A DNA stretch of 64,000 nt. Origin: Enterobacteria phage Aplg8. A program made the translations under genes and the position numbers. The DNA lies in the sequence record NC_054902.1. One strand, 5' to 3'. Position 1 is the first letter of the stretch. Each line of letters opens with the position of its first letter. Shown piece by piece: positions 13,724 through 14,743 of this stretch. The notes under the pieces were generated by a model. The model was not told the origin of the DNA and did not search any database. It saw only the letters and a list, made by a program, of their open reading frames with translations.

Positions 13724-13799
13724 TGGTCGAGGCAGTAGGGATCGAACCTACGACCTAGGACTTAGAAGGTCCTTGCTCTTCCTTCTGAGCTATGCCCCG
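13724..13799 (-). tRNA. tRNA-Arg (anticodon UCU)
   Basis: Hand-folded cloverleaf: acceptor CGGGGCA/TGCCTCG, anticodon loop CTTCTAA, T-loop TTCGATC, encoded CCA. Confidence 0.85.
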
Positions 13800-13803
13800 T
13801 AAT

Positions 13804-13879
13804 TGGGGTGACCGATGGGAGTCGAACCCATGACTACGAGAATCACAATCTCGAGTTCTACCAACTGAACTACGGCCAC
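13804..13879 (-). tRNA. tRNA-His (anticodon GUG)
   Basis: Cloverleaf: acceptor GTGGCCG/CGGTCAC, anticodon loop TTGTGAT, discriminator C73, CCA; -1 nucleotide is U not G. Confidence 0.8.
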
Positions 13880-13993
13880 ATTAATACCTACTCCAACAAT
13901 CAAGATGTCTTCACACGAAATTAAGAGAAGAGTGATCAGTTCAACCCCTATAATCGCGTCAAGTAGATATTAATGTGACAGTTGTCACAAATT

Positions 13994-14068
13994 TGGCGGA
14001 CGTGATAGGATTTGAACCTATAACCAATCGCTTAACAGGCGATCGCTCTGCCATTGAGCTACACATCC
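13994..14068 (-). tRNA. tRNA-Asn (anticodon GUU)
   Basis: Cloverleaf: acceptor GGATGTG/CACGTCC, anticodon loop CTGTTAA, T-loop TTCAAAT, CCA. Confidence 0.8.
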
Positions 14069-14072
14069 AAAT

Positions 14073-14159
14073 TGGTGGGGAGTGATGGAGTCGAACCACC
14101 CGAGTCGCAATGACAATGGATTTACAGTCCACACCGCTACCTCTACGGGATAACTCCCC
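14073..14159 (-). tRNA. tRNA-Tyr (anticodon GUA), type II
   Basis: 87 nt; acceptor GGGGAGT/ACTCCCC, anticodon loop CTGTAAA, long variable arm, CCA. Confidence 0.8.
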
Positions 14160-14171
14160 TAATTCATAATT

Positions 14172-14246
14172 TGGTGGCCCTGGGTGGAATTGAACCACCA
14201 TCTGGCGATTATGAGTCGCTTGCTTGAACCTTCCAGCTACAGGGCC
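14172..14246 (-). tRNA. tRNA with CAU anticodon (Ile2/Met; Ile in T4)
   Basis: Acceptor GGCCCTG/CAGGGCC, anticodon loop CTCATAA, T-loop TTCAATT, CCA. Confidence 0.8.
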
Positions 14247-14247
14247 T

Positions 14248-14323
14248 TGGTGCTGATTGACGGAATCAAACCGCCGACCTTCTCATTACAAGTGAGTTGC
14301 TCTACCTACTGAGCTAAATCAGC
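14248..14323 (-). tRNA. tRNA-Thr (anticodon UGU)
   Basis: Acceptor GCTGATT/AATCAGC, anticodon loop CTTGTAA, CCA. Confidence 0.85.
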
Positions 14324-14328
14324 AAAAC

Positions 14329-14418
14329 TGGCGGAGGCGATAGGATTTGAACCTATGAGTCGCCGGAGCGACTGCCGGTTTTCAAGACCGGTGCATTAAA
14401 CCACTCTGCCACGCCTCC
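14329..14418 (-). tRNA. tRNA-Ser (anticodon UGA), type II
   Basis: 90 nt; acceptor GGAGGCG/CGCCTCC, anticodon loop CTTGAAA, long variable arm, CCA. Confidence 0.85.
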
Positions 14419-14420
14419 AG

Positions 14421-14494
14421 TCTCCATACAAGGATTTGAACCTTGGACCTCCTGATCCCAAATCAGGCGCTCTACCAAACTGAGCTACACGGAG
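14421..14494 (-). tRNA. tRNA-Pro (anticodon UGG)
   Basis: Acceptor CTCCGTG/TATGGAG, anticodon loop TTTGGGA; no encoded CCA; 2 nt from tRNA-Ser (dimeric precursor as in T4). Confidence 0.85.
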
Positions 14495-14503
14495 TAATTA
14501 AAT

Positions 14504-14577
14504 TGGAGCGGATAATGAGAATCGAACTCACATCATCAGATTGGAAGTCTGAGGTAATACCATTATACGATATCCGC
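14504..14577 (-). tRNA. tRNA-Gly (anticodon UCC)
   Basis: Acceptor GCGGATA/TATCCGC, anticodon loop CTTCCAA, T-loop TTCGATT, CCA. Confidence 0.85.
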
Positions 14578-14582
14578 AAATT

Positions 14583-14669
14583 TGGTGCGAGAAGTGGGAC
14601 TCGAACCCACAAGGAAATCATTCCGCAGCATTTTAAGTGCTGTGCCTTTACCAATTTGACCATTCTCGC
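14583..14669 (-). tRNA. tRNA-Leu (anticodon UAA), type II
   Basis: 87 nt; acceptor GCGAGAA/TTCTCGC, anticodon loop CTTAAAA, CCA. Confidence 0.85.
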
Positions 14670-14670
14670 G

Positions 14671-14743
14671 CTGGGAATAAAGGACTCGAACCTTTGCATC
14701 TAGCAGTCAAAGTGCTATGCCTTACCAACTTGGCTAATTCCCA
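14671..14743 (-). tRNA. tRNA-Gln (anticodon UUG)
   Basis: Acceptor TGGGAAT/ATTCCCA, anticodon loop CTTTGAC; no encoded CCA; 1 nt from tRNA-Leu (dimeric precursor as in T4). Confidence 0.85.

Follow-up and report, generated by a model that had tools for sequence, protein, structure and literature searches.

A 64,000-nucleotide (nt) stretch of the genome of Enterobacteria phage Aplg8 (NC_054902.1), hereafter the window, carries on its minus strand eleven transfer RNA (tRNA) genes, predicted by ARAGORN with an outer span of 13724-14743. With good confidence this array is an ordinary and already known accessory tRNA operon of the T-even phages (Tequatrovirus), in the largest of its common forms. 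Its main job would be to supplement tRNAs for codons that are overused by the AT-rich phage: AGA, AUA, ACA, UCA, AAU, GGA, UUA and UAU. In addition, the tRNA-Tyr may have a second role in buffering, by dosage, the tRNA-Tyr pool against the PtuAB nucleases of Septu and retron-Eco7, as in the sibling phage T6, and the tRNA-His would have been gained or retained with a conserved structured leader RNA as a module of its own. The value of the re-analysis is that the three genes in excess of the T4 set are told apart: Asn and Tyr are ordinary, Tyr having a documented counter-defence role, and His is anomalous. Much of this was known before, since T2-type Tyr-Asn arrays were reported in 2008, an anti-nuclease hypothesis in 2023 and the action of tRNA-Tyr against Septu in 2026. 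There is some novelty, confined to two side observations, a clade of tRNA-His genes that lack an encoded G at position -1 (G-1) and an unannotated structured RNA that accompanies it; if both hold, they represent unstudied RNA biology within one of the oldest model loci of molecular biology.

The tRNA gene array

The tRNA genes and the structured RNA that lies among them are as follows, beginning with the first gene of the operon.

14670-14743, minus strand: tRNA-Gln(UUG), first gene of the operon; ARAGORN, Rfam 66 bits; same as the T4 gene
14583-14669, minus strand: tRNA-Leu(UAA); ARAGORN and Rfam; 87/87 identical to T4
14504-14577, minus strand: tRNA-Gly(UCC); ARAGORN and Rfam; 74/74 identical to T4
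14420-14494, minus strand: tRNA-Pro(UGG), CCA not encoded; ARAGORN and Rfam; same as T4
14329-14418, minus strand: tRNA-Ser(UGA); ARAGORN and Rfam; same as T4 across 87 nt
14248-14323, minus strand: tRNA-Thr(UGU); ARAGORN and Rfam; 72/76 identical to T4
14172-14246, minus strand: tRNA with anticodon CAU, T2/RB27 allele; ARAGORN and Rfam
14073-14159, minus strand: tRNA-Tyr(GUA), class II with a long variable arm, A73; ARAGORN, and tRNAscan-SE in the Sf22 record
13994-14068, minus strand: tRNA-Asn(GUU), G73; ARAGORN, Rfam 74 bits
13880-13975, minus strand: conserved structured RNA in the Asn-His spacer; fold and covariation
13804-13879, minus strand: tRNA-His(GUG), C73, T at -1 (no encoded G-1); ARAGORN, Rfam 65 bits
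13724-13799, minus strand: tRNA-Arg(UCU), T2/RB27 allele; ARAGORN and Rfam

An earlier note on this DNA had placed eleven tRNA genes with these anticodons at 13724-14743 and had named ARAGORN as a check, and the two agree exactly. The Rfam family RF00005 recovers ten of the eleven with 59-74 bits (expectation values, E, of 1e-11 to 1e-15) against a gathering score of 29. In Rfam the tRNA-Tyr is listed just as the clan relative tRNA-Sec, at 34 bits and under the threshold of that family; its identity is backed by ARAGORN, by tRNAscan-SE in the Sf22 record and by 85/87 identity, with an identical variable arm, to the expressed tRNA-Tyr of T6. All eleven genes are real, far beyond chance.

The region 13600-14900 is 99.7% identical to that of Shigella phage Sf22, a Tequatrovirus, and is matched by 992 phage records, 245 of which cover at least 80% of it and usually have all eleven tRNAs annotated; the array is thus in the databases many times over, for example in Sf22, wV7, RB18, Sf21, PhiZZ23 and several BASEL phages. 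With annotations in Sf22, wV7, RB18 and ~245 other genomes, the array as first noted adds nothing new. It has the features of a T-even operon: locus, strand and gene order are those of T4 and T2, the flanks are the e.8-side genes and the trna.2-4/ipI/57B genes, and rnaD and then rnaC follow.

The CAU-anticodon tRNA is named tRNA-Met by ARAGORN and in the GenBank records of Sf22, RB27, T2 and T6. It has a 15-nt core of the anticodon stem-loop and a GGCCC start of the acceptor stem in common with E. coli ileX (58/76 overall), and judged by these positions it is most likely a tRNA-Ile2 (lysidine, reading AUA) rather than a tRNA-Met. The Met label is a likely mis-annotation because of this ileX-like core and acceptor start and because AUA is ~5x enriched in the phage. 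As a separate observation, read from the sequence, the tRNA-Thr differs from that of T4 by C27-to-A and G43-to-A, by which the top pair of the anticodon stem becomes an A·A mismatch.

Codon usage

Codon usage was compared between 86 open reading frames (ORFs) of the window (19,622 codons) and 40 annotated genes of E. coli K-12 (15,040 codons). The cognate codon is commoner in the phage than in the host for ten of the eleven tRNAs, the exception being His. Phage-to-host ratios of codons read by the array, directly or by U34 wobble, are as follows.

AGA, 10.7x: direct, tRNA-Arg
ATA, 5.1x: direct, CAU tRNA
ACA, 3.75x: direct, tRNA-Thr
TCA, 3.7x: direct, tRNA-Ser
AAT, 3.4x: direct, tRNA-Asn
ACT, 3.3x: U34 wobble, tRNA-Thr
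GGA, 3.2x: direct, tRNA-Gly
CCT, 2.8x: U34 wobble, tRNA-Pro
TCT, 2.7x: U34 wobble, tRNA-Ser
TTA, 2.7x: direct, tRNA-Leu
TAT, 2.6x: direct, tRNA-Tyr

Since AAT and TAT are among the most phage-enriched codons, codon supply accounts for the Asn and Tyr genes as well as it does for the classical T4 tRNAs. At the level of amino acids the three most enriched in the phage are Tyr (1.83x), Lys (1.66x) and Asn (1.61x). His is the lowest of the twenty at 0.61x, with CAT at 0.89x and CAC at 0.31x, so that codon supply fails for tRNA-His. The plus-strand block of late structural genes agrees with this, at 61 Asn, 42 Tyr and 13 His per thousand codons. The earlier note had thought a defence role more plausible than codon-usage tuning for the three extra genes; such tuning is a full explanation for Asn and Tyr and none for His.

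Relation to the arrays of other T-even phages

T4 has eight tRNA genes and lacks His, Asn and Tyr, as the earlier note had said and the T4 annotation agrees, and its order of transcription is Gln-Leu-Gly-Pro-Ser-Thr-Ile-segB-Arg-rnaD-rnaC. The small stable RNAs that the note had located in the corresponding T4 interval are not there: the Ile-Arg interval of T4 is occupied by the homing endonuclease gene segB, and rnaD and rnaC lie downstream of Arg. An exchange of stable RNAs for tRNAs is also ruled out, as rnaC and rnaD are both present downstream in the window and the T4 interval is segB. Homology to T4 ends within the CAU tRNA, and the T4-divergent genes number five, not three. The CAU, Tyr, Asn and Arg genes share 97-100% identity with their T2 and RB27 counterparts. 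The CAU tRNA matches both of these phages at 75/75 positions (49/79 with T4 tRNA-Ile), tRNA-Arg at 74/76 (50/81 with T4 tRNA-Arg) and tRNA-Asn at 74/75; tRNA-Tyr matches RB27 at 87/87 and T2 at 86/87.

The Tyr, Asn and His genes had been taken for a single block, and this does not hold: a conserved spacer of 114 nt parts Asn from His, and relatives have Tyr-Asn without His. In RB27, Tyr-Asn is followed directly by Arg, with neither His nor the spacer; T2 has CAU-Tyr-Asn-Arg and a 116-amino-acid (aa) ORF as in the window, and no His; T6 has Tyr alone of the three, followed by segB; and Mosigvirus LF82-9 has Tyr-Asn-spacer-Arg without His. Because these arrays hold different subsets, Tyr, Asn and His are independent modules.

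Arrays of this kind in T2L, RB1 and RB3 were described already in 2008 by Brok-Volchanskaya et al. (PMC2330249), and in that work SegB cleaved preferentially inside the tRNA-Asn gene of T2L, and in crosses of T4 with T2L, 99.6% of progeny carried the T4 segB cassette in place of a ~1250-base-pair (bp) Met(CAU)-Tyr-Asn-Arg block. As SegB homing replaces the T2L block, the eight-gene set of T4 is one allele of a locus reshuffled by homing and not a baseline. The variants of the operon (eight genes in T4, Tyr added in T6, Tyr-Asn added in T2 and RB27, eleven genes in this phage) would have arisen by cassette exchange, SegB homing included, and the present array is a segB-free allele of the T2/RB27 type with an extra module of structured RNA and tRNA-His.

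segB itself was not found in the array, and a T4 segB query gives a single weak match in the window, 71% over 89 nt at 54140-54228, that points to another homing endonuclease gene of the GIY-YIG seg type. The T-loop of the tRNA-Asn (14012-14022, minus strand) reads GGTTCAAATCC as against GGTTCGAATCC in T2 and RB27. This G-to-A change lies within the motif that SegB targets (RAWTSGAAC / T-psi-C element), in the gene that SegB prefers in T2L, and may lower SegB cutting. Outside the T-evens, 84/87 positions of the tRNA-Tyr agree with that of Escherichia phage nimi, an unrelated 137-kb Vequintavirus (L010:1505-1591), where the neighbouring tRNA-Arg genes are ~58% identical, which suggests a recent horizontal transfer of the tRNA-Tyr gene between coliphage families.

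tRNA-His and the structured RNA of the Asn-His spacer

The tRNA-His gene has T at -1, a normal 7-bp acceptor stem and C73, whereas E. coli hisR encodes G-1. According to two reports (PMC4357726, PMC3064791), G-1 is for HisRS the major identity element. T at -1 occurs in all twelve homologous phage tRNA-His genes compared, from Tequatro-, Jiaoda-, Karam- and Gelderlandvirus, Aeromonas phage phiAS5, Morganella phage MP1 and mycobacteriophage Bread. Distinct tRNA-His genes of IMG/VR divide as follows.

Solitary or near-solitary tRNA-His (host-like or attachment-site): G at -1 in 23, T at -1 in 0
tRNA-His within phage tRNA arrays: G at -1 in 7, T at -1 in 9

The seven distinct array genes with G at -1 rule out that all phage tRNA-His genes lack G-1. 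All nine with T at -1 belong to one clade marked by a 'GTAGTT' D-arm, and the missing G-1 is for that reason a conserved, clade-specific trait. No paper on phage tRNA-His without G-1 was found in the literature searched.

Conservation of the 114-nt Asn-His spacer extends to 354 phage records, all of which leave it unannotated; ~196 are Tequatrovirus at at least 95% identity, and ~150 others, at 78-88%, belong to Jiaoda-, Karam- and Gelderlandvirus. The element is flanked in these last three genera by tRNA-Gln and tRNA-His and in Vequintavirinae W70 by Gly and Gln; in Mosigvirus LF82-9 it precedes Arg. In the tRNA sense the ~96-nt RNA at 13880-13975 folds with -32.7 kcal/mol and a z score of -4.4, as against -1.2 for the antisense strand, and in the RNAalifold consensus a stem of 14 bp closes off three inner helices. 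In an alignment of nine sequences 96.8% of the cells pair and nine pairs show compensatory change; these values are reached by none of 500 shuffles, and pairing in slid controls is 37-55%. A covariance-model search added two more divergent members beside tRNA-His in T4-like contigs of ~172 kb, in which the outer stem and small hairpin are retained and the interior differs. With these the covarying pairs number 14; over the alignments 95.6-96.8% of the cells are paired. The same model finds no match in T4, T2, T6 or RB27, nor in the Aeromonas and Morganella phages. The last pair of the stem uses the -1 nucleotide of tRNA-His and is A-U in ten of ten sequences.

Several other identities for the spacer were tried and rejected. 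ARAGORN calls nothing there that would make it a degenerate tRNA; it has no blastn similarity and no covariance-model match to rnaC, rnaD or the 'tRNA-OTHER' of nimi; and a sigma-70 promoter is not indicated, there being no sense-strand site in the spacer and six sites in the region against 7.0 expected. Rfam has no match to it at E of at most 1, and gives a noise match at E 3.5 when the spacer is searched alone.

It may tentatively be suggested, as one possibility, that this undescribed ~96-nt RNA forms with the G-1-less tRNA-His, in at least four Straboviridae genera, a module that acts beyond codon supply. The RNA might be a third stable RNA of the operon or might control 5' processing of the tRNA-His, and a poorly chargeable tRNA-His might serve as a decoy or regulator.

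tRNA-targeting nucleases and the function of the extra genes

A role of the tRNA-Tyr in counter-defence is suggested by work on T6 (Chihara et al. 2026, PMC13096335). In that study Septu EcB88 (PtuAB) cuts tRNA-Tyr in the variable loop; it restricts T4, in which a tRNA-Tyr is lacking, strongly and T6 to an intermediate degree, and T2 resists it; over-expression of the T6 tRNA-Tyr, whose expression was shown experimentally, rescues T6, and deletion of the T6 tRNA region sensitises it to Septu. Since Septu cleaves the phage tRNA-Tyr as well, protection there is a matter of dosage, and escape mutants carry an amplified tRNA-Tyr-segB unit. Retron-Eco7 has the same effector type and is countered by the tRNA-Tyr of T5 (PMC11555353). 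By its sequence the tRNA-Tyr of the window would be expected to behave like that of T6.

The extra genes might instead be kept mainly as an anti-defence supply, Tyr against PtuAB, Asn and Thr against AriB of PARIS and His against some yet-unnamed nuclease, with codon fit secondary; this is possible but seems rather unlikely. The T6 data, taken with the 85/87 identity and the identical variable arm, favour it, and so does the varying presence of these genes among phages of like codon usage, which suggests host-specific selection. AriB cuts E. coli Lys(UUU) and Thr(UGU), less so Asn(GUU), with traces of His(GUG), between positions 40 and 41 beside a U36-A-A-U39 motif (PMC12409363), and the window genes differ from the host at 39-41: tRNA-Asn has G39 and G41 against U39 and C41, and tRNA-Thr has G40 against C40. 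Such anticodon-stem differences are, however, expected anyway between tRNAs of no more than 60% identity, and divergence alone would give them. The array also lacks tRNA-Lys(UUU), the main PARIS target (ARAGORN finds no tRNA-Lys in the window), and T4-type phages are PARIS-sensitive unless Lys is supplied (PMC12409363). Cleavage of the T6-type phage tRNA-Tyr by Septu means that dosage alone helps, and for His there is no known nuclease link. The tRNA-His might on the other hand be a passenger with little or no function in translation, possibly a poor HisRS substrate for want of G-1, the selected or mobile part being the upstream structured RNA or the cassette. An unlikely explanation on the whole, this fits the lowest enrichment of His among the amino acids (0.61x), the lack of an encoded G-1, the joint travel of element and tRNA-His across Tequatro-, Jiaoda-, Karam- and Gelderlandvirus and the retention of the element without His in Mosigvirus LF82-9 and Vequintavirinae W70. 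The gene is nonetheless highly conserved, with an intact cloverleaf across genera and compensatory changes in the T-stem, which argues for purifying selection on a functional tRNA; and the G-1-less clade occurs also where the element is absent (phiAS5, MP1 and Bread), so that the absent G-1 is not tied to the element.

The explanation offered by the earlier note was that Tyr, Asn and His are retained jointly against a nuclease of the colicin E5 type that cuts at G/Q34-U35 anticodons, replacing cleaved host tRNAs with the possible help of RnlB. The idea has a basis in that the extras over T4 are three of the four GUN tRNAs, a result that random choice of three from the twelve amino acids not covered by T4 would give in 4 of 220 cases (a post hoc calculation), and a 2023 paper had already put forward, as a hypothesis, that phage tRNAs act against colicin E5, colicin D, PrrC and VapC (PMC10264068). 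The gene rnlB is in the window as noted, at 50666-51679 on the minus strand, but it lies 36 kb away and is a core gene also of T4, which has none of the trio, and it shows no association with them. Colicin E5 recognizes Y33-G34-U35-N36, its minimal substrate is GpUp and its substrates are tRNA-Tyr, His, Asn and Asp (PMC1635277). In the phage Tyr, Asn and His genes the 7-nt anticodon loops equal those of E. coli tyrU, asnT and hisR, with the complete YGUN kept, and since the loops are identical and the determinant is intact the phage tRNAs would be cut like those of the host; a search for escape mutations in the anticodon loops of Tyr, Asn, His and Arg gave none, the loops matching the host's. 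tRNA-Asp, the second-best E5 substrate, is not found in the window by ARAGORN, and as it is not supplied, translation would still stall. In addition the trio is not inherited together (T6 has Tyr, T2 and RB27 Tyr-Asn, LF82-9 Tyr-Asn and the element without His), Asn and Tyr are confounded by AT-richness, the NAU codons being heavily used, and colicin E5 acts between bacteria as a toxin; the literature examined yielded no phage-defence nuclease of its specificity. An answer to an E5-type nuclease is therefore highly improbable, given the conserved YGUN, the lacking Asp and the separate inheritance. What survives of the replacement of host tRNAs lost to a tRNA-targeting defence is its application to Tyr, by homology to T6, against PtuAB and cleavage in the variable loop; an E5-type anticodon nuclease does not survive.

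The preferred reading, codon supply with a second role for tRNA-Tyr and a separate origin of tRNA-His, has points of its own to answer. His is not what codon compensation predicts; Lys (1.66x), or else Phe or Asp (TTT 1.98x, GAT 1.67x), would be expected before it. T4, with nearly the same codon usage, thrives without Tyr, Asn and His, so that the benefit in codon supply is modest or host-dependent. The amplification route of T6 is unavailable in cis because no segB lies beside the tRNA-Tyr, and the portion of the Septu study drawn on here (PMC13096335) does not credit the full resistance of T2 to its tRNA. Finally, expression, processing and charging of the tRNAs are for this phage predictions.

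Expression of the operon and neighbouring genes

The further features in and beside the operon are as follows.

14813-14839, minus strand: T4 middle-promoter-like motif, 5' of tRNA-Gln; motif match
13355-13705, minus strand: 116-aa ORF (phrog_3355) between tRNA-Arg and rnaD; PHROGs E 2.6e-52
13241-13355, minus strand: rnaD (species 2 stable RNA); 99.1% identity to T4 rnaD
13096-13234, minus strand: rnaC (species 1 stable RNA); 98.6% identity to T4 rnaC
13022-13045, minus strand: terminator-like hairpin and T run, 3' of rnaC; pattern match

Upstream of tRNA-Gln the sense strand has at 14839-14813 a MotA box TTTGCTTTA, 12 nt and TATTAT, within a stretch that is 97.6% identical to T4. Judged against the established consensus of T4 middle promoters this arrangement matches, and it is a putative T4-type middle promoter. 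The rnaC RNA folds with a z score of -4.6 and has a T-arm-like 3' hairpin, and the hairpin at 13045-13022 is probably the end of the operon. By homology to T4, the genes would be co-transcribed on the minus strand from the promoter upstream of tRNA-Gln to the terminator after rnaC, and host RNase P and 3' processing enzymes would cut the transcript into tRNAs.

Three small ORFs lie in or beside the operon, all on the minus strand, of 116 aa (13355-13705), 171 aa (14830-15345) and 157 aa (12498-12971). They fall into the PHROGs families phrog_3355, phrog_2290 and phrog_2280, respectively, which are of unknown function, and a Pfam search gives no match for any of the three. Sf22 has all of them, T2 the 116- and 171-aa ORFs and RB27 the 171- and 157-aa ORFs, and none is annotated at the matching positions of T4.

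Comparison with known systems

The substrate set of colicin E5 resembles the array in that three of the four substrates are encoded, each with U33-G34-U35; it differs in that Asp is lacking and the determinant unaltered, and in that E5 is a bacteriocin and not a known phage defence. The tRNA-rich region of T5 (PMC11555353, PMC11464382, PMC12409363) likewise supplies phage copies of tRNAs that host nucleases deplete, tRNA-Tyr against retron-Eco7 and variants of tRNA-Lys, Thr and Asn against PARIS. However, the T5 tRNAs are cleavage-resistant, through a distinct variable loop or changes at 39 and 41, whereas the Tyr of the window is of the cleavable T6 type, the anticodon loops are host-like and tRNA-Lys is absent. 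A further such case is the tRNA-Tyr/segB locus of T6, in which the tRNA-Tyr, 85/87 identical with the same variable arm that holds the Septu cut site, is also placed after the CAU tRNA; segB beside Tyr drives tandem amplification in T6, and the window has Asn at that place and no segB.

The structured RNA of the spacer may be likened to T4 rnaC and rnaD, being like them a small structured non-tRNA RNA within the tRNA operon on the same strand, presumably freed by tRNA processing. It has no sequence similarity to them and, unlike them, is absent from T4, T2, T6 and RB27. With the T4 operon as a whole the array shares position, strand and order, identical Gln, Leu, Gly, Pro and Ser genes and a Thr gene matching at 72/76 positions, rnaD and rnaC at 98-99% identity and the upstream promoter region at 97.6%. 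T4 differs by segB and by other alleles of the CAU and Arg genes (~62% identity), and it lacks Tyr, Asn, His, the spacer element (no covariance-model match) and the 116-aa ORF.

Among the closest described systems are the tRNA regions of T2/T2L, RB1, RB3 and RB27 (PMC2330249; AP018813, KM607000), in which segB is likewise absent and ...CAU-Tyr-Asn-Arg precede rnaD and rnaC; in T2 the 116-aa ORF after Arg is also present, with 103/117 identical (EcT2_00138), whereas RB27 is without it. T2 (AP018813) has an ORF in place of the tRNA-Thr, which the window keeps. To the arrangement of T2 and RB27 the window adds, between Asn and Arg, the 114-nt structured-RNA spacer and the tRNA-His.

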